A stretch of 64,000 nucleotides of DNA, from positions 64,001-128,000 of the forward strand of contig CAVQUB010000013.1 of assembly GCA_963716725.1 (NCBI GenBank), in the 5' to 3' direction. Each line of letters opens with the position of its first letter. The first letter of the stretch is position 1. The position numbers and the translations under genes are program-made. A model generated the notes under the pieces. That model was not told the origin of the DNA. It did no database searches and worked only from the letters and a program-made list of their open reading frames with translations. Below, piece by piece: positions 17,451 through 55,349 of the stretch. Source of the DNA: an uncultured delta proteobacterium (GTDB lineage Bacteria; Myxococcota_A; Polyangia; Polyangiales; Polyangiaceae).

Positions 17451-17816
17451 TCAGCGAGGGAGCGCTTCTCGGATGAGAGCGACGGCGACCTGCGGCGCGC
17501 GCAGAACGAGCTCGGCATCCAGCCGGAGGACGCGATACCCGAGCCGCGCGAGTTTGCGGTCGCGCGAGGCATCCGCGGTGGCGCGGGCGCGATGGCAAGC
17601 ACCGTCGACCTCGATGGCCAGTCGAGCGGCAGGCACCAAGAAGTCGACGATCGCATCCCCGAGCACCACCTGCCGACGCACTTCGACCCCGAGCCGCCGC
17701 GCGCGCAGCGCTTCCCACAGCGCGGCCTCCGACCGGGTGGCCTGCTCGCGCATCTCCGCGGCGCGCTGGGCGAGGAGTTCCTGACGACGGAGCTGAGCGC
17801 GTTGACGAGCGAGCAT
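17451..17816 (-). CDS. DUF559 / Vsr-like endonuclease-domain protein
   Basis: RAAEMREQATRSEAALWEALR..LG..RRQ..IVDFLVPAARLAIEVDGACH..DASRDRKLARLGYRVLR. Confidence 0.85.
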   Translation of the reverse strand: MLARQRAQLRRQELLAQRAAEMREQATRSEAALWEALRARRLGVEVRRQVVLGDAIVDFLVPAARLAIEVDGACHRARATADASRDRKLARLGYRVLRLDAELVLRAPQVAVALIREALPR

Positions 17817-18063
17817 GGGCACCTCCGAAGACCCGGTGTGGTGGGCGGGCCTCGCGACCCAGGGCGCACGATCTGTGACGCGCCGCTTGCGAGTGCTTCC
17901 GGGCGCGCATGCGCGTTCACTCGAGACCTCGCGTCTCAACTCGCCACGCGGCGCGGCGCGGAGCGTGCGCCGACGAGCGGGGCCCGACCGCCACGACGGG
18001 CCGAGGCGTCATGCCTCCGCTCGTCACGACCTTCGACGACGGTCCGATTTCGCAAGCACGCCC

Positions 18064-18132
18064 GTCTTCCCCATTCGGGCAAAGCCCGAATTTGGGGAAG
18101 ACCGACGCCGCGCAGCGGCGGCGAGTTGGGGC
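18064..18132 (+). repeat. Double-hairpin REP-like element, copy 1
   Basis: GTCTTCCCCATTCGGGC-AAA-GCCCGAATTTGGGGAAGAC, then CGACGCCGC-GCA-GCGGCGGCG, then AGTTGGGGC. Confidence 0.9.
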
Positions 18133-18542
18133 AGCAACGCACACGCCTCACTTGCTCGGGAGATTGAGTCGTAAGCAGTGGCCCGCTCACGCGAAGAACC
18201 GGATCGATGCGTGGAGAGCGTTGCTCAACGATCGATCGCGGCGTGTGCAGGAGTGACCGAGAGACGCAGGGACGCGGGGAACGCGGAGAACGCAGGGGGA
18301 GAATTTTGGGGTTCGGAGGTGAACTGCGACGCACGCTCGAGACCGACAGCGCGGTGTCAGCGAAGGAGCGCCTCGCGGATGAGAGCGAGGGCGACCGGCA
18401 GCGCGCGCAGAACGAGCTCGGCATCCAGGCGGAGGACGCGATACCCGAGCCGCGCGAGTTTGCGGTCGCGCGAGGCATCCGCGCCTTCGCACCCGAGGCA
18501 AGGCCGTCATCTCCACGTTGTTTCCTGGTCGTGGCAGAACCA

Positions 18543-19327: not shown

Positions 19328-20055
19328 CGCGGCAGCCGAGTTGCTGACCACGGAGCTGAGCGCGTTGACGAGCGAGCATGGGTGCCTCCGAGGCACGACA
19401 CGCTCACTCGGTCGCGCCGAGCGAGCACAGCTGCATCAATCCCCCACGACGCCGCGTTCAAGAGTGGCGCGCGAGGGCTCGCCGACTGCGCGCCGGAGCG
19501 CTGATTGTGCGGGTCGTGCACAAGCGCCCACGAGCTGACTTCGCGTGATGCACGTACACGCCGTCGAGCACGAGAGCGTGGCCGTGGACGTTCAGTCTCA
19601 AAGCACCGTCCGTCCTCTGCACCGCGACCACGCCGCCGGTGTATGCTCTCGTGACGCTTGCGATTCCGAGCTCGCGCTTCGCGCGCCAGCGCAGCGAGCG
19701 GTCCACCTCCGCCATGAACGCGCTGACCACTTCTGCGCAGAGCTTCCGGTCGTCCCCCGTCGGGGACTTCGCAGCGTCGTAGCCGAGCAGCGCACGCAGC
19801 CCCCAGGGCAAGGAGCAAATCCAATGGCGGATCCGCACACGGGGCAGAACTCGCTCCTCCAAATGCACGGCCATGTCCGCCATGCGTCGCCCGACACAAG
19901 ATGGGCAAAAGCCGCGCTTTTTGCACGAAAACGCCACGAGGTCGGAGTAACCGCAGTCACGACACACGAGGTGCAGACAACCTCGCTCGAGCTGTCCACA
20001 CCCTAAATACTCCTCGAACTCCTTCACCACGACGCGCTGCGTGACACCCGACGGG

Positions 20056-21522
20056 CTCATGATTGATCGGATCCCATCTGGGACCGGGCAGCTCGGAAGC
20101 CGATCTCGTAGTCGAGGAGCTTCTGGTAGCCCCGTCCTAACGTTTGCCACCCGGGTGCGCCGTTGTTCTTCAGATGCCCGCCGAGTCGCGCGACAGCGAA
20201 TAGCGCTTGCTCAATGGTCTGCGGGACGGCCGGGAGGCGGAGCTTGAACTTTATGAGGAGCAACTGGGGCTCACTCAGGATCGTTGTTGCCGGTTGCTCG
20301 GGTGCGACGCGGGCTAACGAGCGCATGAGCAACAGGCGCCAGGCGATGGGCAGGAACACGGCGAGCGCGTTGCTCAGTGCCTGATACGACTCGAGCTGTC
20401 GTTTCTCGAGAGAACACCCTTGCTTGAGTGCCTTGAAGAACTCTTCGATCACCCACCGACTGCGGTAACAGTCCACGACGGTCGCGAGTTCGGCGACGGT
20501 GTCAATGGGTTCGGTAGTGAGCAGCACCCACTCGACCGACGGCTCGCCTTCTGGTGGTTGGAGTTCCCAGACTCGAACCACGTTGAGTTCGATGCTGCGC
20601 GTCTCATGTCGAGTGTTGCGGGGGCGCAGCACAGTCAAACGTTTGCCTGCCACGGCGACCTCCGCGCTCCGGGCGTTGCGAGACGGGTGCTCTTTTGCAG
20701 CATGCGCGCGACTGCTCGGTTTCCTCGATGACACCGAGATCGTGCGAAAAAACTGCGGTTCGAGCGTTGAGATTGCACTGCGCAAGCAGATGCCTATTTC
20801 CTCAGTTACTCGGTCGTGAGCCGAACGGATGACGTAGCGCGCACCGAGTTCCTGCGCCTTCGCCAGGACCTCGAAAATGTCCGCTTCGCGGTCCATCACG
20901 TGAATGAGCGCGCTGCCGGGGCAGCGTGCATGGACGGCCTCGAGCATGGCCGGCCAGCGCAGTGATTCGCGCTCGGGGTCTCTCCGACTGACAGACCGGC
21001 GGCGCCCGCGTCCACCCTTGTGTACGAGGCGGACGTGTCGCTGTAGACCCAGAACTCCGAGTGGCACTCGCTCCTCGCCGGGAAGCACGGCCAGCGCCAC
21101 GTGTGCGAGAAACCCCTGGCTGCCGCCGGACGTGACGCCCAACCCAGCTCGCCGACTGGCGCCGCCGAGCGATACTTCGGTCGTATCGTGCGCGACGATA
21201 CACAGGCCAGCGGAACTCACACGCTCCACCGTCGCCGACAGGTGCGGGTCAAGGATTTGCTCCGCGTCGAACTGCTCGTTGCGCAGGAATCGGTAGACTC
21301 CCTCAAGCTCGGACGGAGTGTCGACAGCCTGCGGAAACCCAACACCGGGCGCCGCCATCAGTTTCTCAGCGAGCCAACCGAGCCTGTCACTGCGCCGCTT
21401 ATCGCCGAGCTGAGAGCCCTCGAACTCGTCCGAAATCGACCGCCCTAACCATTCTGTTGCCGGCATTTCTCCCGTAGATCACACGCGCCGTCCGCTCGCA
21501 ATGAGATGTGTTTGATCATGAG
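20056..21522 (-). mobile_element. IS4-family insertion sequence with 8-bp target duplication CCGACGGG
   Basis: Ends CTCATGAT../..ATCATGAG; CCGACGGG at 20048-20055 and 21523-21530. Confidence 0.92.
20057..21466 (-). CDS. IS4-family (IS50-like) transposase
   Basis: LGDKRR..R, HDTT, VMDREAD, EWVLLT, YRSRWVIEEFFKALK, ARLGGH..PGWQTL. Confidence 0.93.
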   Translation of the reverse strand: MPATEWLGRSISDEFEGSQLGDKRRSDRLGWLAEKLMAAPGVGFPQAVDTPSELEGVYRFLRNEQFDAEQILDPHLSATVERVSSAGLCIVAHDTTEVSLGGASRRAGLGVTSGGSQGFLAHVALAVLPGEERVPLGVLGLQRHVRLVHKGGRGRRRSVSRRDPERESLRWPAMLEAVHARCPGSALIHVMDREADIFEVLAKAQELGARYVIRSAHDRVTEEIGICLRSAISTLEPQFFRTISVSSRKPSSRAHAAKEHPSRNARSAEVAVAGKRLTVLRPRNTRHETRSIELNVVRVWELQPPEGEPSVEWVLLTTEPIDTVAELATVVDCYRSRWVIEEFFKALKQGCSLEKRQLESYQALSNALAVFLPIAWRLLLMRSLARVAPEQPATTILSEPQLLLIKFKLRLPAVPQTIEQALFAVARLGGHLKNNGAPGWQTLGRGYQKLLDYEIGFRAARSQMGSDQS

Positions 21523-21819
21523 CCGACGGGGTGAAGCGCGGCAGGCCGCCGTGCTCTTCGGCCCTCTCCAAGAACGCCGGCCAGTGCTCCGCCACCGTCT
21601 GGTGGAGCACGGTGCTCTCCGGTCGATGGCGGGAACGCGATCGCTCGGACGGTGCAAGCGCGTGTGCGGGATGGCCCACGCCATGCGTGCATGAGCGAGT
21701 CCCGTGCCACGCGGCAGAGCCGCAAAGCCCCTGAGAATTCGTTCGCCCGCAGGCGGCGAAGTGGCGAAGTCAGGTGGCGATCGCCACCCAGGGGCGCGCG
21801 CTCTCTCCCGGCGCAGCCC

Positions 21820-22241
21820 GTCTTCCCCGCTCGGGCGAAGCCCGAGTTTGGGGAAGACCGACGCCGCGCAGCGGCGGCGAGTTGGGGCAGGAAGAGAGGC
21901 CCGGCGTGGTGGGCGGGCTTCGCGACCCAGGGCGCACGATCTGTGACGCGCCGCCCGCAGCGCTTCCTCGCGCGCAAGCGCCATCGTGATCGGCACCCTG
22001 CTTCCCGTCACCGCGCGGCGTGGCGCAGAGCGTGCGCCGGTTGAGCGCAGCCCGACCACTGCGCCGGGCCGAGGCACCACGAGCCGCGCGTGGCTCAGCG
22101 ACGACACACCAGGCTCGGAGCGACTCGTCTTCCCCGCTCGGGCAAAGCCCGAGCTTGGGGAAGACCGCAGGCGCGCACGAGCGCGAAGCGACGCGCTTCG
22201 CGATACTCGAAGGGGTGCGAGGAGCACCTGCGAGTTGGGGC
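21820..22241 (+). repeat. Double-hairpin REP-like elements, copies 2 (21820-21888) and 3 (22127-22241), separated by a copy of the DUF559 leader region
   Basis: GTCTTCCCCGCTCGGGC.AAGCCCGAG.TTGGGGAAGAC, second stem and AGTTGGGGC tail. Spacer is homologous to about 17830-18010 and 22555-22770. Confidence 0.9.
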
Positions 22242-22249
22242 AGGAAGAG

Positions 22250-22545
22250 AGCCGGAGCACCCGGTAGCCGAGCCGCCGGAGCGCGCGCTCGCGTCGGGCG
22301 TCCGCGACGCGGCGGTCGCGATGGTACCCGCCGTCAACTTCTATGACGAGCCGACAGGCGGGCACCAAGAAATCGACCACGTGCTGGCCGAGCACCACCT
22401 GACGCCGCACCGGAGCGCCGAGCTTTCCAGCGCGGAGCATTTCCCAGAGAGCTTGTTCGGAGCGGGTGGGCGTGGCGCGCATCTCGGCGGCGCGCTCGGC
22501 GAGGACTTGCTGGCGGCGAAGCTGTGCGTTGGGGCGAGCGGACAT
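22250..22545 (-). pseudogene. DUF559 endonuclease paralog, 3'-truncated at the REP-like element
   Basis: AERAAEMRATPTRSEQALWEMLR..VDFLVPACRLVIEVDGGYH..LGYRVLRL, then runs into the element. Confidence 0.8.
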
Positions 22546-22902
22546 GGTTCCTCCGAGGCCCGGCGTGGTCCCCCCCTGGGGACTTCCAAGGGTCGTGGGC
22601 GGGCTTCGCGACCCAGGGCGCAGGCTCTGTGACACGCCGCCCGCTGGCGCATCGTTCAAGAGTCAGCGTTCTTGCTCAGGACGTCGCATCAGGTCGGCAC
22701 GCGGCGTGGCACAGAGCGTGCGCCGGTTGAGCGGCGCCCGACCACTGCGCCGGGCCGAGGCACGACGAGCCGTTCGCAACGGCGCGCGACGACGCTGACT
22801 CTCACGCGCGAGCACCTTCTCGATCTCGAGCGCAAGCACCACGCTCGCGCCGTCGCCTCCGGCCTTGCAGCTGGATCGCTTCGAGCATAGACGGCACGCG
22901 CG

Positions 22903-24626
22903 CGGGAAGGAAGAATGAACTGCCAAAACCCACCGAAGCTCAGGGTACGCGCGGCGCGTTTCGAGGTCGAGGGGTGGTCGGGAGTGGTCGGAGTAGCTGG
23001 TACTGACGCTGCTCGCCGCTCCGACCCTTCAGGGCGAGGCTGAATGCGCCACCGCGGAGGGACCACCGCCTTGGCGGGGCGCTCGGCGAACCCTCACCCT
23101 CCCCCGAACCCCAGCTCCAACTGCTCGGGCACGCGCAGCTTCTCGCGCTCGAGCGGCGGCGCGCGCGGCCCGAGGCCATGCTCGGCGAGCAGCCGCGTGA
23201 TCGGAGCGCGCGTCGTGGCGACCTCGGCCCAGCGCATCGGACCCGAGCAGCGCGGGCAGGTCTCGACATCGGCCTGGAACACGACCCTGGGAAGTCCCCG
23301 ACGGGGGACATGGGCCAGCATCCATGCCCATCGTTTACGCTGCACCGGTGCGTCGTCCTTCTCGCCAAGTAGCTCGAGCTGGTCGCCGCGGGCGGGCGGC
23401 GGCTTGTTCGCGGTCGCGTCCGCTGGCGGTGTGGGCACGACGAGGCGCCGTCGAGAAGAGTGGCTCGACGACCCTTGGAAGTCCCTGAAGAGGGAGAGCA
23501 CGCCGAAGTACCGCAATAAGTGCCAGCGAGGCGGTGGCACCGCGGCCACCAGACGCGGGATGAGGTCAGCCGGCTCGAAGACCAGCGCGCGTGTGCCGCC
23601 CCCCGTCGGGGACTTCCAAGGGTCGTCGCGCCAGGGACGCTTGAAGCTCAGCTCGAGCTTGCCGTCGGCGCGGCGCGCGAGACGCTCCTGCGAGACGGAG
23701 GGCGCGTGATGTCCCCCGTCGGGGACTTCCAAGGGTCGTACTTGCAGATTCGCTCCACGCGACGGCGATCCCGTCCGTCGATGGCCTGAGCTGCGTGGAT
23801 GTTGATACCGCGCACCTCCGCGATGGGCTCGTCAATGGCGTCTGCGGCGCGCGGGCGCGCGGTCGGCTCTGGCGAGGTGAGCAGCCGCAGGGGCGGCTTT
23901 CCGGCGCGCTCGCCGCTCACGGAGACGACCCCTGGAAGTCCCCGACGGGGGATGCCCTGCGCTGCGGCGGCGTAGCAGGCGGCGAGCCCGGGCTCGTCCA
24001 GGGCGAGCTCGGGCGGGGTGTCGTCGTCGCACTCGGGGTCCAGGCTTCGGCCATGCGCACGCAGGATCTTCTCGATGCGAGCCGCGGTGCGCGAGGCGAC
24101 CTCGGCGATGTCCGCGTGAGAAGGCGCGTCGAGCTCCAGGAACTCGAGCGGAGCGCGCGGGTCGTCGTCCTGGTGCACGTACACGCCGTCGAGCACGAGC
24201 GCGTGGCAGTGAACGTTGAGTCGGAGGGCACTGTCTGTTCTCTGCACCGCAACCACGGCGCCGGTGTGACAGCTGGCGACGCTCGCGACGCCGAGCTCGC
24301 GCTTTGCGCGCCAGCGCAGTGAGCGGTCCACCTCCGCCATGAACGCGCTCACCACCTCGGCGCAGAGCTTCCGGTCGTCCCCCGCCGGGGACTTCGCAGC
24401 GTCGTAACCCAGGAGCGCGCGCAGACCCCAAGGCAAGGAGCAGATCCAATGGCGAATGCGTACGCGCGGCAGCACTCGCTCCTCCAAGTGCACGGCGATA
24501 TCCGCCATTCGGCGCCCGACACAGGAGGGGCAAAAGCCGCGCTTTTTGCAGGAAAAAGCCACCAGCTCGGAGTGCCCGCAGTCACGACACACGAGGTGTA
24601 GACAGCCGCGCTCGAGCTGCCCGCAG
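22903..24626 (-). mobile_element. IS91-like element copy B: 5'-truncated, frameshifted near 23697, carrying six 27-nt insertions
   Basis: Colinear with the intact transposase at 48652-50223; end motif GAACTGCCAAAACCCACCGA..AGGGTACGCG. Confidence 0.9.
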
Positions 24627-24677
24627 GTCAGAGGTGACGCCACCTGTGTCATCGGCGCGCGCTGTCCGTAACCTGGC

Positions 24678-25955
24678 TCAGAAGGCGAACGAGAGCGAAA
24701 GGTATCCGCCACCCGCCAACGGTCCACCGTCGACCTTCGGCTTCAGCCAGGTGGTCTTCCGTGTCGATTCGACGTCGTGGATCGACTTTCGCAGCAGTTT
24801 TCGGTTGTGCTTTTCGGCGTAGATTCGCGCGTCGTACTCCGTGAGAAGGTGATCGTTCGGCGCTCCTTCTCCGAAGACCAGTCCAAAGATGGTCAGAGGC
24901 ACTCCGGCGACGAGCAGCGTGAAGCCGCCGGTGAACGCCGCGATGGTCGGCGGATCGTTTCCCTTGAGATTCCCGAATGCCAGGCTAGCCGTTGTGAGGC
25001 CCGCACCCACGACGAGCATGGTGATCCCGCCGTACAGCTGGAACTTGGCGCGGTGGGTCTCGACGTCGTCGAGATCCTTCTCTCCCGTCGCCGCACGATA
25101 CCGACGCACGAACTCGTTCTCCGAGACGAATCCCTGTGCGTCGGAGAACGCGTAGCCGCCATACGGACTAACCCCCACCTTCATCTTCTGCGACTCGTAG
25201 ATCGCCTTCACCTGATCGCTCGCGGATGTCTCGCTGATGCCCGCTGCTTTGGCGACACCGAGCGGGCCCACGTCGTCCTTCTTCGAAGGGTCACGTGGGT
25301 GCACGCCGATGGCGAAGTAGCCGTGGACTTTCTTGCGGTGGAGGACCTTCAGGGCCACGGCGCCGGACGTGCTGCCTACAGAAACGATGTCGACCCCCGC
25401 GCTCGCGTTGGTCTCCTCGCCGGTGGCGTACTCGCCATCTCCGTAGACGATCGACTGCACGTAGCCGTAGCCGCAGGCGTTGCCGCCCTTCTCCGCGCAA
25501 CAGGCGGCGTACTCGGTCGTGTCGGCGCGGACGACCTTCTTCTGCGGGGCGAGCTTGTAGAGGAAGTGCGTCGCGTGGCTCACGTCGGCGCCGAATCCGA
25601 ACAGGCCGAGCGTCGCGCTAGCCTTCGCGCCGACCGCGAGCTCTTCCGCGTCCTCGTACGTAGCGGTCATCGCGAACGTCTTCGCCGGCTCGAGCTTGTC
25701 CGCGCATGGGTTCGGCTGGATGAGCTTCGCGATGGGCTCCCCGGCCTGCGGTGCCGATACGATGATCCTCCCCAGGATCGTATCGTCATCGCTCGGACCC
25801 GGCACGAGGACGTACTCGTCGCCGATGGGCAGCTTCGGTTCGGTCGGCGTGTTGGTCGCGGTCGATCGCGGGGTCGGCGTACTGCCGCATCCTGACGCAA
25901 ACGCGACCAGCACTACCGAGGCGATCATGGCCTGGCTCGTCTTCACCTCTCGCAC
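24678..25955 (-). CDS. Hypothetical lipoprotein with two C-terminal hydrophobic segments
   Basis: ASGC lipobox; 425-aa ORF with plausible composition; family not recognised. Confidence 0.7.
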   Translation of the reverse strand: MREVKTSQAMIASVVLVAFASGCGSTPTPRSTATNTPTEPKLPIGDEYVLVPGPSDDDTILGRIIVSAPQAGEPIAKLIQPNPCADKLEPAKTFAMTATYEDAEELAVGAKASATLGLFGFGADVSHATHFLYKLAPQKKVVRADTTEYAACCAEKGGNACGYGYVQSIVYGDGEYATGEETNASAGVDIVSVGSTSGAVALKVLHRKKVHGYFAIGVHPRDPSKKDDVGPLGVAKAAGISETSASDQVKAIYESQKMKVGVSPYGGYAFSDAQGFVSENEFVRRYRAATGEKDLDDVETHRAKFQLYGGITMLVVGAGLTTASLAFGNLKGNDPPTIAAFTGGFTLLVAGVPLTIFGLVFGEGAPNDHLLTEYDARIYAEKHNRKLLRKSIHDVESTRKTTWLKPKVDGGPLAGGGYLSLSFAF

Positions 25956-26113
25956 CCTGCACTTTCCGGCGATGATGCTACACGCGGGCGCATAGGTAGA
26001 ACAAGAGGGGGGTAGTTGCGCTTGTCAACCACCTACCGTTCGCAAACCCCGGACTGGCGTGAGGCGGCTGTCAGCCCGGCTTGTCTGACACCTTCCAGGT
26101 TGCGGAGCGCGGG

Positions 26114-28012
26114 CTATTTGAGCGGGACGAGCTTGTCGCCGAGGTGTCGGACGGCGTCGTGGCGCTCGCGGGGTGCGATGGCGTACGTGGCCTCGATGAG
26201 CCTCGCCGCGTGACGGTAGAGGCGCTCTCGATCTTCGGCAGGCTGGGCGAGGAGCGTCTCGACGATGGTGTCGAGCCAAAAGGTCCTCTCCAAGTTGCTG
26301 TCGGTCTCGGTCGCCTTCTCGACGCAGGCGAGCAGAACGCACGCGACGTCGGGCACGTCGCGGAGAGCTTCGCGCTCGACGCGGAGCGGCTCGAGAAAGC
26401 GGTCGCGCGCGTCCATGCGGTTCTTGTAGAGGAGCTCGGCAAAGAACTCGCCTTCGGTCTTCGCTGCGACGTTTTTCACGATGCCGAGCAAATAGCGCGC
26501 ATCAGCGCTGTCGGGAAGGGCGTTTGCAGAGCGTTTTGCCTGGAAGATCGTGAGGCCATCGACGATGGCGTCTTGTGGGTAGCCAGCGATGGCGACGCGG
26601 ATGTTTCGCTCGGGGTCGAGCAGCCGGAGGCGTTCGAAGTAATCGTCGAGCAGCGCGAGCACCTCGGGACGCCGGCGCGCCTCCAGCGTACGGCGCGCGC
26701 GCTCCTGGCGCTCGGCCAGGTCGCGCAGCTCGCAGCGCGCTTGCTCGATCTGCTCGGCGCTGGGAGCGTCCGCGCAGAGGTCGACACGCGAGCGGCCGTT
26801 GCGATCCTTGCGCGGGCGGTGGTTGGTCGTGCGTGCCCAGACCTGGACGACCAAGCCGAGGAAGCGGCGGGCGAGATCGTGGGCTTCGGTCCGCGTGTCG
26901 AGCTCGAGTGGAGGCAAGATCTGAGAGAACAGCCCGAAAGCGCCCTCGACGTGCGCCTTATTTTGCGGGCGCTCGATGGTCGCGCGTATCCGGATCGTGT
27001 CGCCGAGCGCCGCGTCGACCTCTGGTGAATGGTTGGACGGCTTGTTGTCGAGCAGGAGCGCGAGCGGGGTCGCGCCGGTGGTCGCTGTGCCTTGCTCGAA
27101 CGCCTCGACGACAGCGGCGCTGTCCTCCTCGTCGCGCACAGACGTGCCAACGAAAGCGCCGGTGTGTGCGTCCACGTCGAGCTCGAGATTGAAGACGAAG
27201 CGCTGTCCATCGACGACGACGGGCACTTGCATGCTGTCACCGACCCACTGCGCGCCGGGGAGGTAGGTGCGGAACGCGCCACGCAGCGCGAGCTCGTCGG
27301 GGCTACGGCCGACACGAGACGCCGGCTTGCGCCGCCCATGCACCGCGAGAATGCGCCGGACGAGGTCGCGGCCGAACGACAGGTGCAGGTCGCGCCGTAC
27401 GTGCTCGCAGAATTCGAGGAACGAGCCCTGCCAGCGCTCCCAGGCGTCGAGCACGGTCTGAATGTGCAACGTCTCCACGCTGGCCATGTCGGTGTCGGTG
27501 TCGGCACCGGCGCATGCACCCGACGTCGGCGTGCTGGCCGCGGGCACGTCGTCGCCGGCGCTCACCGGTGCGTTGCGGATCCAGTCCTTGAGGGTGCCGA
27601 GCGGGATGCGCGCCGCCTGCGCGAACGCCTCCAGCTCGAGCGAGGCGTGGGTGTGCACCAAGCCGAGCAGGAAGCGCCGAAACTCGTCGCTGTATTGCTG
27701 TCGCCTCGCCCCGCGATCCACGCAGCCGGGATGCGCCATCACGTGGTCGAGCACGCTGCGGGTCACCGCCGCTCCGGCCTCGCTCGGCGGCGTGGAGCAC
27801 TCTTTCGGCGGCCGTCCCGGCGCCCGCGCTAGCGCTGGCAAGGCGGCGGCGATCTTGCCAGCGGCCTCGTAGGCCTGGCTCTTGGAGCAGCCAGCGGCCT
27901 TCACGATCGCATCGACCGGCGGCACCGGCAGCCCGCGCTCCTCGCCGAGCGCGCGCCCGAACAGCAGCACGCCAGCGAGCCAGGCAGGACAAAGCGCGAC
28001 GGAGGCAATCAC
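26114..28012 (-). CDS. Large DDE integrase/transposase (rve-like core)
   Basis: GAQWVGD, VDAHTG, LLLDN, PQNKAHVEGAF, NHRPR. Confidence 0.75.
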   Translation of the reverse strand: MIASVALCPAWLAGVLLFGRALGEERGLPVPPVDAIVKAAGCSKSQAYEAAGKIAAALPALARAPGRPPKECSTPPSEAGAAVTRSVLDHVMAHPGCVDRGARRQQYSDEFRRFLLGLVHTHASLELEAFAQAARIPLGTLKDWIRNAPVSAGDDVPAASTPTSGACAGADTDTDMASVETLHIQTVLDAWERWQGSFLEFCEHVRRDLHLSFGRDLVRRILAVHGRRKPASRVGRSPDELALRGAFRTYLPGAQWVGDSMQVPVVVDGQRFVFNLELDVDAHTGAFVGTSVRDEEDSAAVVEAFEQGTATTGATPLALLLDNKPSNHSPEVDAALGDTIRIRATIERPQNKAHVEGAFGLFSQILPPLELDTRTEAHDLARRFLGLVVQVWARTTNHRPRKDRNGRSRVDLCADAPSAEQIEQARCELRDLAERQERARRTLEARRRPEVLALLDDYFERLRLLDPERNIRVAIAGYPQDAIVDGLTIFQAKRSANALPDSADARYLLGIVKNVAAKTEGEFFAELLYKNRMDARDRFLEPLRVEREALRDVPDVACVLLACVEKATETDSNLERTFWLDTIVETLLAQPAEDRERLYRHAARLIEATYAIAPRERHDAVRHLGDKLVPLK

Positions 28013-28070
28013 GGTGGGAGTACCGGATCTGCCTCCGTCGCTGGACGTTTGTCGATCTAGTTTCGAACGA

Positions 28071-28337
28071 CTATTGCTGTGTAGAGGCCCCGAGCAGCCT
28101 CTGCCCCAGCAGCCACACCTCGGGTACGCCGCCGCGGCTCGTCACCTTGAACAGCTCGAGGCAGCGATCGCGAAGGTCGAGCAGGTCGCTCGCGTCGCGG
28201 CCGGTGCCCGCCTCGATGCGCGCGAGCACCTCCTCGACGCGACCGTAGTAGCGGTCGGCGGGCACGAGCAGTCCGCCGAGCGCGTGGTGGGTGCGCCCGT
28301 GATTGCACCAGTGGATGTGCGCGTCGAGGCGGCGGCG
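28071..28337 (-). pseudogene. C-terminal fragment of a second integrase-core gene, cut by IS91-like copy C
   Basis: HIHWCNHGRTHHALGGLLVPADRYYG is typical of an integrase-core C-terminus. Confidence 0.65.
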
Positions 28338-29120
28338 CGTAGGAGGAACGAACTGCCAAAACCCACCGATGCTCAGGGTACGCGCGTGGCGGTCGGAGGT
28401 CGAGAGGCAGGTCGGGGTGGCTGGCTGAACAGTTGGTTGCCGCTGCTGAGCGTCACAGCGAGGCAGAACGCGCCACCGCGCACGGAGCACCGCCTTGGCG
28501 AGTCCCGCGACGAAGCCTCACCCTTCCCCGAACCCCAACACGAGCTGCTCGGGCACCCGAAGGTTCACGTGTTGACGCGGCGGCGCTCTCGCCCCGAGAC
28601 CGTGCTCGGCGAGCAGGCGGGTGATGGCAGCACGCGTCGTGGCGACCTCGGCCCAGCGCATCGGACCGGAGCAGCGGGGACAATGGTCCATGTCAGCTTG
28701 GAACACGTGGGCCAGCATCCATGCCCATCGTTTGCGCGGCACCGGCGCGTCGTCCTTCTCGCCAAGTAGCTCGAGCTGATCGCCGCGGGCTGGCGGCGGC
28801 TTGTTCGCGGTCGCGTCCGCCGGCGGTGTGGGCACGACGAGACGCCGGCGCGAGGAGTGGCTCGACGACCCTTGGAAGTCCCTGAAGAGGGAGAGCACGC
28901 CGAAGTACCTGAGGAGATGCCAGCGAGGCGGCGGCACCGCGGCGACGAGGCGCGGGATGAGGTCGGCGGGCTCGAAGACCAGCGCGCGTGTGCCGCCCCC
29001 CGTCGGGGACTTCCAAGGGTCGTCACGCCAAGCACGCTTGAAGCTGAGCTCGAGTTTGCCATCCGCGCGGCGCTCGAGGCGGTCCTGCGCGACAGGTGGG
29101 CGCGTGATGTCCCCCGTCGG
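28338..29120 (-). mobile_element. IS91-like element copy C (3' part), cut by IS4
   Basis: ITRPPVAQDRLERRADGKLELSFKRAW..; end CGTAGGAGGAACGAACTGCCAAAACCCACCGA. Confidence 0.9.
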
Positions 29121-30613
29121 CTCAGGATTGATCGCATTTCCGTATGGAATCGAGGGCCATCTGCCACCCCATGCGTAGCAGGAGCAGTTTTTCGTAGCCG
29201 CGTCCGAGGGTGAGCCAGCCCGGCGCGCCGTTGTTCTTGATGTGACCGCCCAGTCTTGCGAGCAACGCAACCGCGTCGCGGACTGTCTTTGGTTTCGGCA
29301 AGCCGCGGGCAGCTGGTGCCTGGTGGAGGAGAGCTAGCTCGGTCTCTGTGAAGACGGCACTGGCGGGCGCGCCGGAGTGGAGCCGATCCATGCTGCGAAG
29401 CCAGAGTAGCTGGCAGGCGATGGGCGCCAGGATGGCGAGTACCTTGCAGAGGGCGTCATACGATTCGACTTGTCTCCGCTCCAGGGAGCACCCGGTCTTC
29501 AATGCCTTGAAGTAGTCCTCGATCGTCCAACGCTTCCGATAGAGGTCGACGACCCGCTCAAGGTCGGTTTTTTGAGCCACTGGTTCAGAGGTAAGGAGCA
29601 CCCACTCGACAGCGGGCTCGCCCGCGGGTGGTGACTGCTCCCAGACCCGTACGACGTTGATTTCGAAGTCCGCTCCTCCCGACTTGGTGTACCGGGTTCG
29701 ACCGAGCGTGATCCTCGTCGATGCGATGCTGACGCGCGCGACCCGTGCGGACCGGTGCGGGTGCTTCCGCCTCCCGTTGGCGCCGCTCGTCTTGAAGTTC
29801 TGTTTTCGCTCGCTGAGCGCCACGTCTCGGTGGACGATTGGGACCAGATCTGCCACCACTTCCCTCAAGTGCCGCGCGTCGCCCTCGTCGTAGACGAGGC
29901 GATCGATTTGCCCAGCCCGAATGATGAATCGGGTGGACTCATCCGCCATGTGGCGCATCAGCTCGAAGAAGTCCGCTTCTGCATCCATCACGTGGATGGC
30001 ACGCGCGGAGAGTTTCGGCGTCCTGGTAGCACTCACCCCGCGCAGCCATCGCTCAGATTCTCGTGATTCCTTGTCGCGCCTGGTCGTTCGGGCTGCCTTC
30101 CGCTTCTGCCATGTCGCTCCGGTGCGCGTATATGTCTCAAGGTGACCGATCCCCAGCGGCACTCCGGTGGTGGCGCAGAGGCACAACGACATGTGTGCCA
30201 TGAATCCCTGTCGGCCCAGCGCTGTCGTGTGTAGGCCAGCCCTGCACGCGTTCCTTCACCCCGAAATTCGACCGTGGTCGTATCGTGAATGAACAGAACC
30301 TCCTTCGACGCTTCGGCTCGCTCCAAAGTTGCTCGCCGATGAGGCTCGAACAAGTCCGCCGCGTCGAACGCATCGTTGTTCAGAAACCGATAGAACGCCT
30401 CGAGCTCAGCGGGAGACTCCAACGCCCGAGGAAACCCAACGGCTGGGTCATGTTCGATAGCCTCCACCACGCGAACCAGTCGCGCGCTGCGCCTCGCATC
30501 ACCCAACTCCGCGCCGTCGAAGTCCCGAGTCAGCCGCTCAAATCGCTTAAACCTAGCCACATCGAGCTTTGATCACGCCCGATCGCTAGATGCAAGATGT
30601 GATAGATCCTGAG
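29121..30613 (-). mobile_element. Second IS4-family element, transposase frameshifted near 30220, no matching target duplication
   Basis: Ends CTCAGGAT../..ATCCTGAG. ORFs 30033..30560 (LGDARRSARL, HDTT) and 29122..30201 (VMDAEAD, YRKRWTIEDYFKALK). Confidence 0.9.
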
Positions 30614-30663: not shown

Positions 30664-32800
30664 GCCGAGTAGGGACCCCCGGTTGCCCGGGGGCCCCTCT
30701 CACAGAACCGGACTTGTGGGCCTCACATCCGGCTCTTCGGGACGATGGCGTTGGCGACGGCCGTGTTCTTCACGAGACCTCATGGCTCGCGAAGCCCGGG
30801 GCGGGTCCTCTTCCATCATCAGCTTGCGCCTCAGCTCATCTTCCCTGCCGCACCGGCGGCGGGAAGCCGATGTCCCAAATGCGCTCGTGGTTGCCACGCC
30901 AGTGAGCGTGCAGCGCAAAGAGGCCGCGTCGCTCGAAGTACTCGTTGTTGAGCCCCCGAGAAACGGCGCGGACCTTGCTGAGCGCCCACCAGCTCCGTCT
31001 TCGTGCATGTACATCGACGTGCACGAGTGGAGCCGGCACTCCCATTTGCTTCAATCGGTTCACGATGTGCCGCTTGCGCTTCCACTGCTTCAGCAGAAGA
31101 GCGCGCAGGCGACGGCGGAGATGACCGTCGACACGGTCCATTCGAGGGTGATGCTTCCCATCGCAGATCGCGAAGTAGCCGAGCCAACCGCGGAGATAGA
31201 CGTTCACGCGCTGGATGCACTCGTCGAACGACTGCCCCCAGTTGCGCGGCGTAAGCTCCTTCAGCCGTTGCCGAAGACGCTCCCAGGACGACTCCGCCAC
31301 CAGGACGCGGACTGGCCCAGACTTCAGCCGATGTAGCGTCAGTCCGAGAAAAGACCGCGTCTGTGGCTTCGCCACCTTGCTCTTCTCCTTGTTGACCCTG
31401 AGCCGCAAGCGCTTCGCGATGAAGCGCTCGAGACTCGCCATCACACGTTGCCCGGCAAGCTCGCTCCGTACGTAGACATTGCAATCGTCTGCGTACCTCA
31501 CGAATCGATGCCCTCTCGCTTCGAGCTCATGGTCGAGCTCGTCGAGCACGATGTTGCTGAGCAGCGGCGACAGTGGGCCCCCTTGCGGAGTCCCGCGGTC
31601 CATCGCTACCACCAGCCCATCGGGCATCACCACCTTGGCCCTGAGCATCTGTCGGATGAGCGAGAGCACGCGGCAATCCGCGATGCGCTGCTCCAGCCGC
31701 GACATCAGTCGATCGTGGTTCACTTGGTCGAAAAATTTCTCCAAATCGATGTCCACGACCCAGTCGTTGCCGGCTCCCAGATGCATCTTGGCTCGTTTGA
31801 TGGCCATGTGGGCCCCACGACCCGGGCGAAAACCGTAGCTCCAATCGTGAAAGGTCTTCTCGTACTGCGGGCTGAGCACTTGGTGCACCGCCTGCTGCAC
31901 GATCCGGTCGATCACGTTCGGGACTCCGAGTCCTCGCTGACCTCCACTCGCCTTGGGGATCCACACGCGCCGGACATCCCCGGCTCGATAACTCCCGTCC
32001 AGCAAGCTCCGCCCGAGCGCGGCCAAACAATCTTCGAGGTTCTTTCGAACTTCTCCGATCGTCTGCCGGTCGGGGCCAGGGGCTCCGCGATTTGCTGCGA
32101 CGTTCTGAAACGCCCGTCTCAGGTTTGCATCGTTGGCTATCTCCTCCATCGTCATCGGCGATAGGGCGTTGCTCGTTCCCTGCGACGACTTCGGCACCGC
32201 GAGTCGTTTCCCGCCGGGTGGGCCCGACGTTCGTGCGACCGCGGCCCCTTGCGGGGTTACGGCTGTCTCGTCGAAGAGAGCGAGCTGCTCTACCTGTTTG
32301 CTGACCGTGACCGCCTTCCCTTGCCGACCCTCGTCGGCTCGGTGCGTCTTTCGACGACCTTCCGGTACTACGCGACCATCCGACTTCTGCCGTCCCGTCA
32401 CCGCCTCGTCCTTTCGTCCTCGGCTGCTACCGTGCTCATCGCACGGAGACCGGCAAATCTCCCCGGGTAAGAAACGCAGAACTTCACACGAATCCCGTCG
32501 CCAATACACCCGACCGACCAACAGACTTCGGGCTTCGCCGCTGGAGACCGGCTCACCCACGGTACGTATGCTTTACGGCGCTTCGCTTGCGCTCGGTTCC
32601 GTGTTGCACCTACGGCTTCCACCAGACGTCCCCTCGCGGGCACACCGCGGCTCACAACCGCAAGCGTGAAGCTCGGTGCTCCGAGCCGACGCCCTTGCCT
32701 TCGGTGAGAGGTTCCCTCTGTCAGGGCCCTCAAAGGACTTGAATCAATTCTCATCGAGTACTGGTTCTCACCTTCTGTTCTGCGCCCATGCCGGGCGCGA
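30664..32800 (-). mobile_element. Group II intron (class C-like)
   Basis: 5' TCGCGCCCGGCATGGGCG; domain V GAGCCGGATGTGAGGCCCACAAGTCCGGTTC; domain VI stem ending CCCTACTCGGC. Removing it restores the C7 run seen in the intron-free site at 35750-35756. Confidence 0.88.
30836..32560 (-). CDS. ltrA: Group II intron reverse transcriptase/maturase without an endonuclease domain (true start probably near 32155)
   Basis: GAPGPD, RRVWIPK, DRIVQQA, SYGFRPGR, DIDLEKFFD, GTPQGGPLSPLLSN, RYADD, domain X LRGWLGYF. Confidence 0.93.
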   Translation of the reverse strand: MGEPVSSGEARSLLVGRVYWRRDSCEVLRFLPGEICRSPCDEHGSSRGRKDEAVTGRQKSDGRVVPEGRRKTHRADEGRQGKAVTVSKQVEQLALFDETAVTPQGAAVARTSGPPGGKRLAVPKSSQGTSNALSPMTMEEIANDANLRRAFQNVAANRGAPGPDRQTIGEVRKNLEDCLAALGRSLLDGSYRAGDVRRVWIPKASGGQRGLGVPNVIDRIVQQAVHQVLSPQYEKTFHDWSYGFRPGRGAHMAIKRAKMHLGAGNDWVVDIDLEKFFDQVNHDRLMSRLEQRIADCRVLSLIRQMLRAKVVMPDGLVVAMDRGTPQGGPLSPLLSNIVLDELDHELEARGHRFVRYADDCNVYVRSELAGQRVMASLERFIAKRLRLRVNKEKSKVAKPQTRSFLGLTLHRLKSGPVRVLVAESSWERLRQRLKELTPRNWGQSFDECIQRVNVYLRGWLGYFAICDGKHHPRMDRVDGHLRRRLRALLLKQWKRKRHIVNRLKQMGVPAPLVHVDVHARRRSWWALSKVRAVSRGLNNEYFERRGLFALHAHWRGNHERIWDIGFPPPVRQGR

Positions 32801-33351: not shown

Positions 33352-33873
33352 CTATCCCCACGCGCGATTTAGGAGCCACCAGGTGCCGACCCCAAACATC
33401 GCCGCAAACGCGACCCAGCTCGCACCGATGGGCGCGGCCGTCGCCACGAAGACAAAGCCACCGGCAAGTGTTGCTAGGTAGATCGACGCTCGCTTCGCGC
33501 GTCGATGTTCGCCCTGCTGACCCCGAGCCAGCATGTTGGTGATGGCGACAGCACACAGCAGCCCAAGGTGTGCCAACAGCACGGTCAACGACCCCCAGCG
33601 AATGCTGGTGGCAGCTGCGCTGGCGATGCACGACCACTGCAGCGCTAAAAGGAACCATTTCCACCACGCAGTTCCGCCGAAACGCGCTCTCGCGAACCGC
33701 AGAACGGCGAAACTCAGTACCTCCACAGTCAGTCCGACGGCCGAACTGCTCCAGCGCGCTGCATCGGCAAGCACAACCGCCGCAAACGCGACTGGCCCGA
33801 TGACCGCAGGGACTGCGCTCAACGCCCATCCGGCACCCCCCCCCTGGGCGCTACTCGGGCTGTTCGCACGCAT
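33352..33873 (-). CDS. Small multi-pass membrane protein, putative immunity partner of the orphan Rhs tip
   Basis: Overlaps the orphan Rhs stop; several hydrophobic segments. Function inferred from position only. Confidence 0.55.
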   Translation of the reverse strand: MRANSPSSAQGGGAGWALSAVPAVIGPVAFAAVVLADAARWSSSAVGLTVEVLSFAVLRFARARFGGTAWWKWFLLALQWSCIASAAATSIRWGSLTVLLAHLGLLCAVAITNMLARGQQGEHRRAKRASIYLATLAGGFVFVATAAPIGASWVAFAAMFGVGTWWLLNRAWG

Positions 33874-35709: not shown

Positions 35710-36230
35710 TCTTGCTGCCCCCCCTCGTCGGCGCTGACGCGCCGCCGGTCCCCCCCTTATCCGGTGAGCGCGGGAAGACCCGCGCCCACGCGGATGGGGG
35801 GGACACGTTCTTCCGTGCTTGGGTGCACAAGCCTGGCGGGCAAGGCCCGCTGCCTCGCGGGTGGTCGAAGCACGCACGGAAGCGCGCTGCTCCACGCCGT
35901 CGCCCTTGCGCGCGTGGCGCTGCTCATGCTCGACCTGCGGGCGGGCTTCGAGAACGGGCCGGCGGAGCGCGACGAGGCGCGCGCGCGGGCCGCGGCGCTC
36001 GAAGAGGTGCTCCGGATCCTGTCCGCGCAGCTCGACATGATCGCAGACTGGTTGCGCGCCGTTCCGTACCAACCTGCGCCGTCGTGCCATCGCCGACCAA
36101 GCTCGGTATGCGACACTGTTGAGCCATCCCCGCCACGACAATGCGGGGATCCCGCGAAAGTCCTGCGACGCAGATCCGAGCGCGGTTCGGCCGGTGACAC
36201 GTGTCGCTGACTGCCGATTCCGTGCCGCGA

Positions 36231-36953: not shown

Positions 36954-36976
36954 GAGCCACCCACTCCCTACGACGG

Positions 36977-48471: not shown

Positions 48472-50330
48472 CGTAAGGCAATCGAACTGCCAAATTCCAC
48501 CGAGTCGAAGGGTACGCGGCGTCGATGGTCGGGTCGAGTGCTGCCCACGAACCCCTGCGGGGCGGCCGAAAGGCGCCGTTCGGCAGAGCTTCTCCGCGTC
48601 GCGCCCGGCGCAGGACACAGCTCCGCCCTCGGCGAGGCGCTCACCGACGCCTCACCCCTCCCCGAACCCCAACATCAACTGCTCGGGCACGCGCACCTTC
48701 GCGTGCTCGACCGGTGGCGCTCGCGGCCCGAGGCCATGCTCCGCGAGCAAGCGGGTGCTCTCCGCGCGCGTCTTGGCGAGCTCGGCCCAGCGCATCGGAC
48801 CCGAGCAGCGCGGGCAGGTCTCGACGTCGGCGGCGAAGACATGCGCGAGCAGCCACGCCCAGCGGTTGCGCGGCGCCGGCGCGTCGTCCCGCTCGCCGAG
48901 CAGCTCGAGCTGATCGCCGCGCGCGGGAGGGGGCTTGTTCGCGGTCGCGTCGCGCGTGGGCGTCGGGACGACGCGCCGGCGCCGCGAAGAGTGGCTCGAC
49001 AAGACGCCGAAGTAGCGGAGCAAATGGAATCGTGGCGGCGGCACCGCGGCGACCAGACGCGGGATGATGTCCGCGGGCTCGAACACGAGCGCGCGCGTGC
49101 CGTCCCGCCACGCCCGCTTGAAGCCGAGCTCGAGCTTGCCGTCCGCGCGGCGCTCGAGGCGGTCCTGCGCGACGGGAGGGCGTGTAATGTACTTGCAGAG
49201 CCGCTCCACTCTCCGGCGATCCCGGCCGTCCACGACCTGCACGGCGTGGATGTTGATGCCGCGGACCTCGGCGATGGGCTGGTCGGTCGCGTCGACGATG
49301 GGCTGGTCGGTCGCGTCGACGGCGCGAGGGCGCGCGGGTGGCTCCGGCGACGCGATGAGTCGGAGCGGCGGCTGGCCGGCGCGGTCTCCGCTGACCGAGA
49401 TGCCCCGGGCCGCAGCGGCGTAGCAGGCAGCGAGGCCGGGCTCGTCGAGGGCGAGGTCGGGTGGTGAGCCGTCGTCGAGCTCGGGGTCGAGGCTCCGTCC
49501 GTGCGCGCGCAGGATCTTCTCGATGCGTGTCGCCGTGCGTGACGCGACCTCCGCGATGTCGGCGTGCGATGGCGTGTCGAGCTCGCGGAACTCGAGCGGA
49601 GCGCTCGGGTCGTCGTCCTGATGCACGTACACGCCGTCGAGCACGAGCGCGTGGAAGTGGACGTTGAGCCGGAGGGCGCTGTCCGCGCGCTGTACGGCCA
49701 CCACCGCGCCCGTGTGGGCGACCGCCATGCTGCCGAGGCCGAGCTCACGCTTCGCTCGCCAGCGCAGCGAGCGGTCCACCTCAGCCATGAACGCGCTCAC
49801 GACCTCGGCGCAGAGCTTGCGGTCGTAGCCGAGCAAGGCGCGCAGGCCCCACGGCAGCGAGCAGATCCAGTGACGGATGGGCACGCGCGGCAGGACGCTT
49901 TGCTCCAAGTGGACGGCGGTGTCCGCCATCCGACGACCGAGGCAAGAGGGGCAGAATCCCCTCTTCTTGCAGCTCAGCGCCACCAGCTCGGAGTACCCGC
50001 ATTTGCGGCAAACCAGATGCAGACAGCCCCGCTCCAGCCGCCCGCAGCGAAGGTACTCCTCGAACTCCTTCACCACGAAGCGCGGCAAGCCGCCGTGCTC
50101 TTCGGCGCGCTCGAGGAACTTCGGCCAGTGCGCTTCGACCGTCTGATAGAGCACGGTGCTCTCCGGCCGGTGACGGAGACGCGACCGCTCGGGCTTGGGG
50201 AAGGCGTGCGCGGGGTGGCCCACGTCACGGGCGCATCAGCGAGCGGCGTGCCAGCGGGATGAGGGCAAAAACCCGCTGGATTTGCCCCTCGCGAGGTGGC
50301 GAAGTGGCGAAGTCAGGTGGCGGTCGGCGA
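48472..50330 (-). mobile_element. IS91-like rolling-circle element, apparently complete (upstream end approximate)
   Basis: Downstream end CGTAAGGCAATCGAACTGCC; upstream motif GGCGAAGTGGCGAAGTCAGGTGGCG shared with copy A (about 21755-21779). Confidence 0.85.
48652..50223 (-). CDS. IS91-family (Y2/HUH) transposase, intact
   Basis: Zn-binding C..C / SCKKRGFCPSC, HUH motif LNVHFHALVLDG, CKYITRP, HLLRYFGVLS. Confidence 0.93.
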   Translation of the reverse strand: MGHPAHAFPKPERSRLRHRPESTVLYQTVEAHWPKFLERAEEHGGLPRFVVKEFEEYLRCGRLERGCLHLVCRKCGYSELVALSCKKRGFCPSCLGRRMADTAVHLEQSVLPRVPIRHWICSLPWGLRALLGYDRKLCAEVVSAFMAEVDRSLRWRAKRELGLGSMAVAHTGAVVAVQRADSALRLNVHFHALVLDGVYVHQDDDPSAPLEFRELDTPSHADIAEVASRTATRIEKILRAHGRSLDPELDDGSPPDLALDEPGLAACYAAAARGISVSGDRAGQPPLRLIASPEPPARPRAVDATDQPIVDATDQPIAEVRGINIHAVQVVDGRDRRRVERLCKYITRPPVAQDRLERRADGKLELGFKRAWRDGTRALVFEPADIIPRLVAAVPPPRFHLLRYFGVLSSHSSRRRRVVPTPTRDATANKPPPARGDQLELLGERDDAPAPRNRWAWLLAHVFAADVETCPRCSGPMRWAELAKTRAESTRLLAEHGLGPRAPPVEHAKVRVPEQLMLGFGEG

Positions 50331-55343: not shown

Positions 55344-55349
55344 GTCCCC

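Follow-up and report, generated by a model that had tools for sequence, protein, structure and literature searches.

A 27-Nucleotide REP-Like Hairpin Repeat Inserted in Frame into IS91-Like Transposase Genes of an Uncultured Polyangiaceae Bacterium

The stretch of DNA analyzed here (the window) comprises 64 kb with a G+C content of 68.1% (contig CAVQUB010000013.1, positions 64,001 to 128,000, assembly GCA_963716725.1) and comes from an uncultured delta proteobacterium assigned to the Polyangiaceae. It carries a 27-nt hairpin-forming repeat (the 27-mer) of consensus ACGACCCTTGGAAGTCCCCGACGGGGG, which resembles the repetitive extragenic palindromes (REPs) of other bacteria. The window has 12 copies of the 27-mer at eight sites and in both orientations: ten are full, one is a half copy, and one is diverged and split by an insertion sequence (IS); this is the tally of a preliminary description of the sequence, whose start positions agree with ours within 1–2 nt. 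The hosts are three dead genes for IS91/ISCR-like transposases (A, B, and C) and the region upstream of a DUF559 gene. Eleven of the 12 copies are intragenic, all in the transposase genes and six of them in gene B, and every copy lies within repeated or mobile DNA. The transposase genes and the full copies are located as follows (source of each assignment in brackets).

48652..50223, minus strand: intact IS91/ISCR-like transposase of 523 aa, with zero 27-mers, which serves as the empty-site reference (Pfam, alignment)
19546..20055, minus strand: IS91/ISCR-like transposase fragment A, resuming at 21523–21798 (Pfam, DNA comparison, alignment)
23069..24727, minus strand: IS91/ISCR-like transposase pseudogene B, host of six 27-mers (Pfam, DNA comparison, alignment)
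28486..29120, minus strand: IS91/ISCR-like transposase fragment C (Pfam, DNA comparison, alignment)
19754..19780, minus strand: 27-mer, site 1 of copy A, variant ACGACGCTGCGAAGTCCCCGACGGGGG (mismatch search, alignment, profile)
22570..22596, minus strand: 27-mer upstream of the DUF559 gene (mismatch search, paralogue gap, profile)
23281..23307, plus strand: 27-mer, site 6 of copy B, antisense to the gene (VPRRGLPRV), empty in C (search, alignment)
23468..23494, plus strand: 27-mer, site 5 of copy B, hairpin variant CCCT/AGGG (SLFRDFQGS; search, alignment, folding)
23600..23626, minus strand: 27-mer, site 4 of copy B (DPWKSPTGG; search, alignment)
23713..23739, minus strand: 27-mer, site 3 of copy B (DPWKSPTGD; search, alignment, folding)
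23925..23951, plus strand: 27-mer, site 2 of copy B (PRRGLPGVV; search, alignment)
24379..24405, minus strand: 27-mer, site 1 of copy B (DAAKSPAGD; search, alignment)
28865..28891, plus strand: 27-mer, site 5 of copy C (search, alignment)
28997..29023, minus strand: 27-mer, site 4 of copy C (search, alignment)

By searching the window with GAAGTCCCCGACGGGGG and allowing at most two mismatches, we obtained seven matches where 0.01 were expected, a number reached in none of 100 shuffles. The full 27-mer, with up to seven substitutions allowed, gave ten matches, each with 0–4 mismatches, and a profile built from 51 distinct copies recovered the same ten (E ≤ 1.4e-6), the next-ranked match having an E-value of 0.43. 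Rfam scans returned only a group II intron domain (32473–32643) for the whole window at the gathering score and, for 20 27-mer loci at E ≤ 0.1, a single tRNA match away from any 27-mer; the repeat thus falls outside the described RNA families.

The intact transposase contains the Pfam domains Y2_Tnp (E 4.4e-20) and Zn_Tnp_IS91 (E 1.2e-16). Because its two NCBIfam scores are below cutoff (273 bits for ISCR clade Ia, cutoff 925; 91.6 bits for transpos_IS91, cutoff 125), its sequence makes it a member of the IS91/ISCR family only broadly defined. At the DNA level, A, B, and C are 73–78% identical to the intact gene, and in a MAFFT alignment of the four sequences B differs from it by six gaps of exactly 27 nt. 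Copy C, 88% identical to B, has two of these gains and the cut half of a third, and the position of B's copy at 23281 is cleanly empty in it; copy A has one site in common with B and one private site, occupied by the IS-split copy. A filled site is exactly 27 nt longer than its empty counterpart, with a junction ambiguity of 1–5 nt and no target duplication. The DUF559-linked copy (22570–22596) similarly appears as a gap of exactly 27 nt relative to a paralogue at 17572–18006, while a second paralogue (21906–22074) can be aligned only from the far edge of this copy onward and has no copy upstream. These comparisons bear out the frame-preserving insertions announced in A, B, and C, the copy announced in the DUF559 leader, and the differences in presence or absence among related copies (23281 filled in B, empty in C); exact 27-nt gains in both orientations also support the earlier idea of an ultra-small, non-autonomous inserted element. 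The difference between B and C at 23281 and the site private to A show that gains or losses went on while the IS subfamily diversified.

Since the unit measures 27 nt, the reading frame is kept when it inserts into a gene, and translation confirms that nine codons without stops are added (DAAKSPAGD, PRRGLPGVV, DPWKSPTGD, DPWKSPTGG, SLFRDFQGS, and VPRRGLPRV). A stop-free "design" of the 27-mer was rejected: its six frames are open, but so are those of 50.5% of the natural 27-mers of the window. All three hosts are dead, A being IS-split and truncated, C truncated by a second IS, and B frameshifted by a 1-nt deletion just after the 27-mer at 23713.

The two remaining copies are interrupted by insertion sequences of the DDE type:

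20031..20055, minus strand: 3′ portion of the diverged 27-mer, toward the N-terminal end of A (IS-removed alignment)
20048..20055, minus strand: 8-bp duplication CCCGTCGG, one copy, within the split 27-mer (IS-removed alignment)
20056..21522, minus strand: IS4/Tn5-like DDE insertion sequence of 1467 bp, inside the 27-mer hairpin (Pfam, boundary comparison)
21523..21532, minus strand: 5′ part of the split 27-mer (AC and the other CCCGTCGG copy; IS boundary comparison)
29111..29120, minus strand: half 27-mer of 10 nt (CCGACGGGGG), site 3 of copy C, cut within the hairpin (alignment)
29121..30613, minus strand: second IS4-like DDE insertion sequence (Pfam, comparison with the first IS)

Once the IS at 20056–21522 and one of the CCCGTCGG duplications are removed, A keeps exactly 27 extra nt relative to the intact gene, so that the diverged, IS-split copy of the preliminary description stands, as does its half copy, CCGACGGGGG at 29111–29120 abutting the end of a DDE IS. 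The two ISs are different (their matching stretches are 69–75% identical), and both sit within 27-mer hairpins. A duplication was looked for on the far side of the second one and none was found, which implies a later rearrangement at this place.

Other features adjoin these genes. The last 1180 bp (3′ end) of the IS91-like element of intact type form three head-to-tail repeats, 100% identical, with units starting at 46109, 47289, and 48469, and a fourth copy of the unit begins at 62927 (intervals 46109–49648 and 62927–64000); the unit starts at the conservation limit of the IS copies (around 48468), presumed to be the ori-side end, and the repetition may have arisen as a by-product of rolling-circle activity or during assembly. 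Two open reading frames (ORFs) of 448 and 675 aa with high third-position G+C lie between B and C (24678–28141); Pfam found nothing significant in them, the sole match being a weak rve (E = 0.006). A group II intron adjoins the second DDE IS, with a reverse transcriptase/maturase ORF at 30836–32560 (minus strand) and the Rfam domain group-II-D1D4-3 at 32473–32643 (minus strand). A larger repeat, roughly 75 nt long or longer and bearing two strong hairpins (CCCGTCTTCCCCGCTCGGGCGAAGCCCGAGTTTGGGGAAGACCG...GCGAGTTGGGGCAG), is present in three copies (18060–18160, 21816–21916, and 22123–22270) that adjoin genes of the DUF559 type (Vsr-like endonucleases); this repeat probably corresponds to the "larger double-hairpin element" to which the 27-mer had been likened. 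Such kinship is not evident to us: the stem of the elements at 18060, 21816, and 22123 is GTCTTCCCC/GGGGAAGAC, and no further likeness to the 27-mer is apparent by eye.

The 27-mer is composed of a 13-nt arm (ACGAC, six variable bases, and GA) followed by a hairpin, GTCCCC-loop-GGGGAC, whose final one or two bases come from the target. Folded as DNA together with the flanking AC, it gives a 6-bp stem and a 4-nt loop, at −6.0 to −6.6 kcal/mol. As had been noticed, the stem is completed by the A or AC that follows the 27-mer: among 64 distinct sites of the family, the 3′ flank begins with A in 54, with the dinucleotide AC in 37 and AT in 13, and on the 5′ side the adjoining base is G in 46. Loops at these sites are GACG (33), GCAG (10), GAAG (9), GGCG (4), and six others (8), on a constant stem. 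A set anchored on GAAGT....loop....AC contains five kinds of stem, CCCC/GGGG (127), CCGC/GCGG (29), CCCT/AGGG (2), CCAC/GTGG (1), and GCCC/GGGC (1), all of them fully paired. As the loop varies while the stem is kept and its variants stay paired, the hairpin is maintained. The six bases after ACGAC also come in sub-variants that recur at unrelated sites (CCTTGG 32, CCTGGG 6, CCTCGG 5, CCCGGG 4, GCCGCG 4, and GCTGCG 3).

Viewed from the other strand, all copies have the form ..(G/A)T^CCCCC-loop-GGGGACTTCCAAGGGTCGT^ (^ marks the junctions), and ..GT is common to the target and to the 27-mer's own end (...TCGT). The junction CGT^C, seen on this strand at 25 of the 64 sites (right flank ACG), resembles a CGTC tag but is target-derived. 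The ends of the 27-mer, ACGAC... and ...GGGGG, are not inverted repeats. In one metagenome-assembled genome (MAG), three copies are located within the loops of other hairpins (GGGTCTGACCG-27-mer-ACAGACCC, GGGGTTGGCCG-27-mer-ACAACCCC, and GGGCTGCCCG-27-mer-ACAGCCCC), and a paralogous hairpin without the 27-mer (GGGTCTGGCCGACAGACCC) is found nearby; hairpin loops are thus possible single-stranded targets.

The polarity of the changes was addressed by aligning 107 database homologues, namely those of at least 440 aa among the best 120 relatives of the intact transposase, with P0084, P0105, B (in two pieces), C, and A; of the 111 rows, 110 are usable, the row of A being in the wrong frame and uninformative. 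Each nine-residue insert is confined to 1–3 rows, which indicates that the inserts are derived, and not ancestral segments lost from the intact copy, the possibility against which the preliminary description had proposed this check. They are placed after reference residues 133, 259, 268, 275, 313, 345, 372/374, 408, 461, 478 (diverged), and 496, giving at least 11 distinct sites in the family, or at least 12 with A's IS-split site near residue 49. One transposase, from a Polyangiaceae MAG (locus L079), has an uninterrupted ORF of 564 aa despite five inserts. On an AlphaFold2 model of the intact transposase (mean predicted local distance difference test score 85.7), 5 of 12 sites fall in loops or at element boundaries, compared with 53% of all positions (binomial P = 0.86); the mapping suggested beforehand therefore yields no loop enrichment. 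Structural choice or filtering of the sites is unsupported by this predicted structure. The IS91-like element of L079 recurs with the same inserts, 100% identical over 1267 nt, at locus L098; the two MAGs are labelled Polyangiaceae and Phycisphaerales, respectively, reflecting either a recent transfer or a binning error.

At shared sites, the 27-mers differ far less than their flanks. We counted 0 differences in 54 positions between B and C (flank divergence 13.3%), 1 in 27 between B and A (14.0%), and 4 in 81 between B and L079 (17.6%), hence 5 in 162 against about 25 expected (P = 3e-7). Among larger paralogous repeats in other MAGs (78–91% identical), the 27-mers are identical in four of five pairs, with a two-base difference in the pair L091/L108. 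The hairpin CCCT/AGGG is found at site 4 in L079, where B and C have the consensus, and at site 5 in B and C. Such likeness could result from recurrent insertion at the same targets, from gene conversion, or from hairpin selection. A hand count of same-strand intragenic copies, in which some ORFs are merely candidate reading frames, also suggests a bias between frames: D-PWKSPTG-D is used at 17 sites, RPLEVPDG at 1–2, and TTLGSPRRG at none. In eight window genes, GAC trinucleotides are distributed over the three phases as 250 : 169 : 26, and the absence of the second phase would have a probability of 0.62^18, about 2e-4 (hand calculation). The bias could stem from peptide selection or from a longer target such as ACGAC.

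Scanning species genomes with the pattern ACGAC-N5-GAAGTCCCC-N4-GGGG (18 fixed positions) identified at least 119 loci and at least 136 matches; the statements below concern the matches listed. They fall into two families, the window's own and a sister family from Gemmatimonadota. The window's family is found exclusively in MAGs, labelled Polyangiaceae, Kofleriaceae, Myxococcales, Myxococcaceae, or "Deltaproteobacteria", three Bacillota, and one each Clostridiales, Fibrobacteres, Phycisphaerales, and Gammaproteobacteria. Matches in isolates (Amycolatopsis, Streptomyces, Arthrobacter, and Corynebacterium) diverge in both arm and loop and seem to be due to chance. Of the 73 matches of the window's family, 42 are outside predicted ORFs and 31 inside; the candidate ORFs, filtered by third-position G+C, include pheT-type (B3_4, tRNA_bind), LplA/B-type ligase, TPR, and amidohydrolase proteins. 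The preference for IS91-like transposons that had been put forward is only partly supported: in the window all copies are in repeated or mobile DNA, whereas elsewhere most of the listed matches are outside ORFs and others in ordinary genes. Head-to-tail arrays of 2–4 units occur at four loci (L085, L042, L068, and L039). A plasmid collection queried with 56 nt around the copy at 23600 gave no match. Searches of the literature by REP topic and by the word GGAAGTCCCC returned no description of the 27-mer; the listed papers containing GGAAGTCCCC are, by title, eukaryotic, viral, or clinical studies.

The sister family accounts for about 70 Gemmatimonadota matches, mostly on one Gemmatimonadales chromosome and in Longimicrobium MAGs. 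It matches the window's family at all 18 scanned positions but within a longer unit, made of two inverted cores and a spacer between them, in the manner of the inverted REP doublets called REPINs, with GTAG abutting the hairpin. At one locus of the Gemmatimonadales chromosome (L041; OY969570.1, 513186–515762), inverted cores at 1001–1027 (plus strand) and 1551–1577 (minus strand) flank a 166-aa ORF, and about 45 other loci of this chromosome carry doublets of the family. The encoded protein is recognized by the models Y1_Tnp of Pfam (E 9.8e-22) and transpos_IS200 of NCBIfam (65.5 bits, cutoff 55), its score against the REP_Tyr_transpos model being below cutoff (23.8 bits, cutoff 80), and many of its homologues are named "REP element-mobilizing transposase RayT" by JGI. 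From its sequence, this locus can be read as a REPtron-like arrangement for the sister family.

REPs are described in the text of PMC3733652 as palindromic repeats of 20–40 bp with a GTAG or CGTC tag, which also occur inside genes, sometimes twice per gene (e.g., in O. terrae and R. conorii), and PMC1525189 reports that specific insertion sequences target them. The 27-mer shares many traits with REPs and REPINs and their associated tyrosine transposases (RAYTs): it is a G+C-rich stem-loop of 27 nt with a kept stem and a free loop, its copies are dispersed and many of them intergenic, it is hit by other ISs, and its sister family displays inverted doublets and a flanked Y1 gene. It differs by its long unpaired arm of 13 nt, by the conservation of its sequence across MAGs labelled as several phyla, by its accumulation in one transposase family, and by the failure to find a RAYT for the window's family in the window and the 119 listed loci. 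Its sequence and tag are also unlike groups GTAG-1 to GTAG-24 and CGTC-1 to CGTC-4, from which the text descriptions of PMC3733652 set it apart. The 27-mer thus behaves like a REP, and its membership of a RAYT system is not proven.

Other small or hairpin-bearing elements offer partial parallels. The single-strand transposition of IS200/IS605 elements ("peel and paste") is well established; these share with the 27-mer a hairpin beside the cleavage site (putative in the 27-mer), insertion specified by a short sequence without duplication, and ..GT at both target and element end, which would explain the tandem arrays, but they have two different subterminal hairpins and span hundreds of bases, whereas the 27-mer is one hairpin in 27 nt. 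Miniature inverted-repeat transposable elements (e.g., Correia/NEMIS) are moved by DDE enzymes, bear inverted repeats at their termini, and duplicate a fixed length of the target; they are likewise small, non-autonomous, and sometimes in frame within genes, whereas the 27-mer has neither of these two features. Rickettsia palindromic elements measure about 100–150 bp; they are set apart from the 27-mer by description, their behavior being alike and their size class and host different. Like these elements and intragenic REPs as portrayed in the text of PMC3733652, the 27-mer is a palindromic insert that adds a short peptide in frame; more than half of the intragenic REPs are there said to be dimers or groups encoding 20–30 residues, whereas the 27-mer is single, encodes nine, and is present up to six times per gene.

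We lean, with modest confidence, toward an explanation in which the 27-mer is a REP-type singlet, moved in trans as single-stranded DNA by an HUH tyrosine transposase, inserted before A(C/T) without duplication, and riding IS91-like elements. For the window's family, we infer both the single-stranded route and the identity of the mobilizing enzyme. A Y1 enzyme (IS200/RAYT type) whose gene lies at another place in the genome would copy the 27-mer as single-stranded DNA and paste it directly 5′ of A(C/T) (3′ of (G/A)T on the other strand), leaving no target duplication. A Y1-type enzyme is proposed because, at the REPtron-like locus, copies of the sister family flank a Y1 gene. Cutting after ..GT would fit the common end of target and element, and tandem arrays may be self-seeding. 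Copies tolerated in IS91/ISCR-like transposase genes would then be multiplied and spread by the IS, which we propose as the reason for their pile-up in these genes and their presence in several phyla. A bolder version, tentative and on the whole doubtful, sees in the 27-mer a REP singlet in active renewal and a parasite of mobile elements, re-inserted or homogenized at the same few-base targets in different lineages, carried between phyla by IS91-like vehicles and perhaps by further repeats, and with peptide selection (D-PWKSPTG-D) acting on intragenic survivors; host divergence where 27-mer copies are near-identical is 12–22%.

Several observations weigh against a REP singlet moved in trans by a Y1 enzyme. 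No Y1 transposase gene was found in the window (Pfam on 45 window ORFs, and tblastn with the L041 protein) or beside copies of the window's family (Pfam on 150 of 170 candidate ORFs), so that the link of this family to Y1 passes solely through the sister family; tblastn with the L041 protein across the 119 listed loci retrieved only L041 itself, and there is no myxobacterial name among the best 120 homologues of this protein, those with a source name being Longimicrobium, Longimicrobiaceae, or Chthonomonadaceae. The window's family is without the classical GTAG tag, and the hairpin is no more stable than shuffles of the same composition (z −0.5 to −1.3). In passages of PMC3116915, the inverted doublet (REPIN) is held to be the replicative unit and singlets to be immobile, defunct remnants, whereas the 27-mer occurs as singlets and head-to-tail arrays. 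Finally, the profile detects zero copies in the approximately 54 kb of the window beyond 19.7–29.1 kb, unlike a REP-rich genome; such a distribution fits import on mobile DNA as well as local activity.

The empty 54 kb is taken up by two of the alternatives. One of them holds that the 27-mers have lost their mobility in this genome or never had it here, having been acquired in an earlier host and carried along and multiplied by IS91-like and DUF559-associated repeats, with gene conversion or hairpin selection keeping them alike. The confinement of the window copies to repeated or mobile DNA, the death of all three host genes, the Phycisphaerales-labelled contig that matches the IS of a Polyangiaceae MAG at 100% identity across 1267 nt, and the low divergence of shared-site copies relative to their flanks all agree with such passive carriage. 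It sits less well with the presence–absence difference between B and C at 23281 and the private site of A, and it still requires an original insertion mechanism; unlikely as a full account, it would complement transposition in trans and not replace it. The other alternative is that the host IS91/ISCR-like Y2 HUH transposase mobilizes the 27-mer itself, preferentially in cis, as a minimal substrate of hairpin plus cleavage site. HUH enzymes generally recognize a hairpin beside the cleavage site, 11 of the 12 window copies are in these Y2 genes, at least 12 sites are known in this one family, and the remainder of the window is free of copies. Yet between the 27-mer and the conserved ori- and ter-side ends of the IS we found only shared words of 5–7 nt, like those of random window segments (commonest 6); the intact, insert-free IS91-like copies (48652–50223 and the partial tandem copies) carry no 27-mer; most listed copies elsewhere are intergenic or within unrelated genes; and the gene flanked by the sister family is Y1, not Y2. 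We consider mobilization in cis decidedly unlikely. A separate candidate, derivation of the 27-mer from IS91 ends, was rejected, there being no shared sequence beyond words of 5–7 nt.

The notion of an excision scar, entertained in the preliminary description, supposes that the 27-mers are footprints of a larger excised element, in line with their palindromic inner part and a variable loop resembling junction filler. It is not supported: the head-to-tail arrays of 2–4 units, the asymmetric 13-nt arm kept across phyla, the sub-variants that recur at unrelated sites, and the intergenic position of most copies listed elsewhere speak against it, and no longer element with such ends is present in the window; we hold it to be very improbable. 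Still less credible, to the point of being nearly negligible, is an artefact of assembly, adapter, or chimera. Such an origin would be compatible with the restriction of the listed records of the window's family to MAGs, the chance-like isolate matches, and the lack of a match in the plasmid collection, but the 27-mer recurs, with differing loops and arms, across many independent assemblies and protein records, it occupies exact in-frame positions in both orientations within otherwise colinear alignments, and it has itself been the target of an IS insertion that left a proper duplication of 8 bp.

The rest of the window encodes proteins of other kinds. A tandem array at 55000–63000 comprises five units of about 1.68–1.77 kb, 86–95% identical in their better-conserved stretches, each encoding a protein with an FGE-sulfatase domain. 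Three large ORFs at 33851–45572 look like a polymorphic-toxin-type locus, two of them having RHS, YD-shell, and teneurin-type repeats and the third Dictyostelium-type repeats and a teneurin TTR-like domain. Ser/Thr kinases and DUF4388 are also part of the gene content, which, with the FGE-sulfatase array and the RHS/teneurin-like proteins, has a myxobacterial look. The serine hydroxymethyltransferase of the window shares 88–89% identity with proteins whose names point to Polyangiaceae and Myxococcales MAGs.

REPs are among the commonest repeats of bacteria, and their movement is still a matter of inference. The boundaries of REP insertions are rarely visible, intergenic DNA aligning poorly; in a well-aligned host gene family, the inserted unit, its target, the lack of duplication, and presence or absence can be read to the base. 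The 27-mer provides evidence, at the sequence level, that a single hairpin unit, and not the doublet alone, can be the inserted unit, and it is a REP-like sequence common to MAGs labelled as several phyla, for which IS91-like elements are a plausible vehicle. It also supplies defined oligonucleotide substrates for a direct biochemical test of Y1 enzymes. If the 27-mer were indeed an actively renewing singlet, the minimal replicative unit of a REP would be a single hairpin with its 13-nt arm, and not the doublet.

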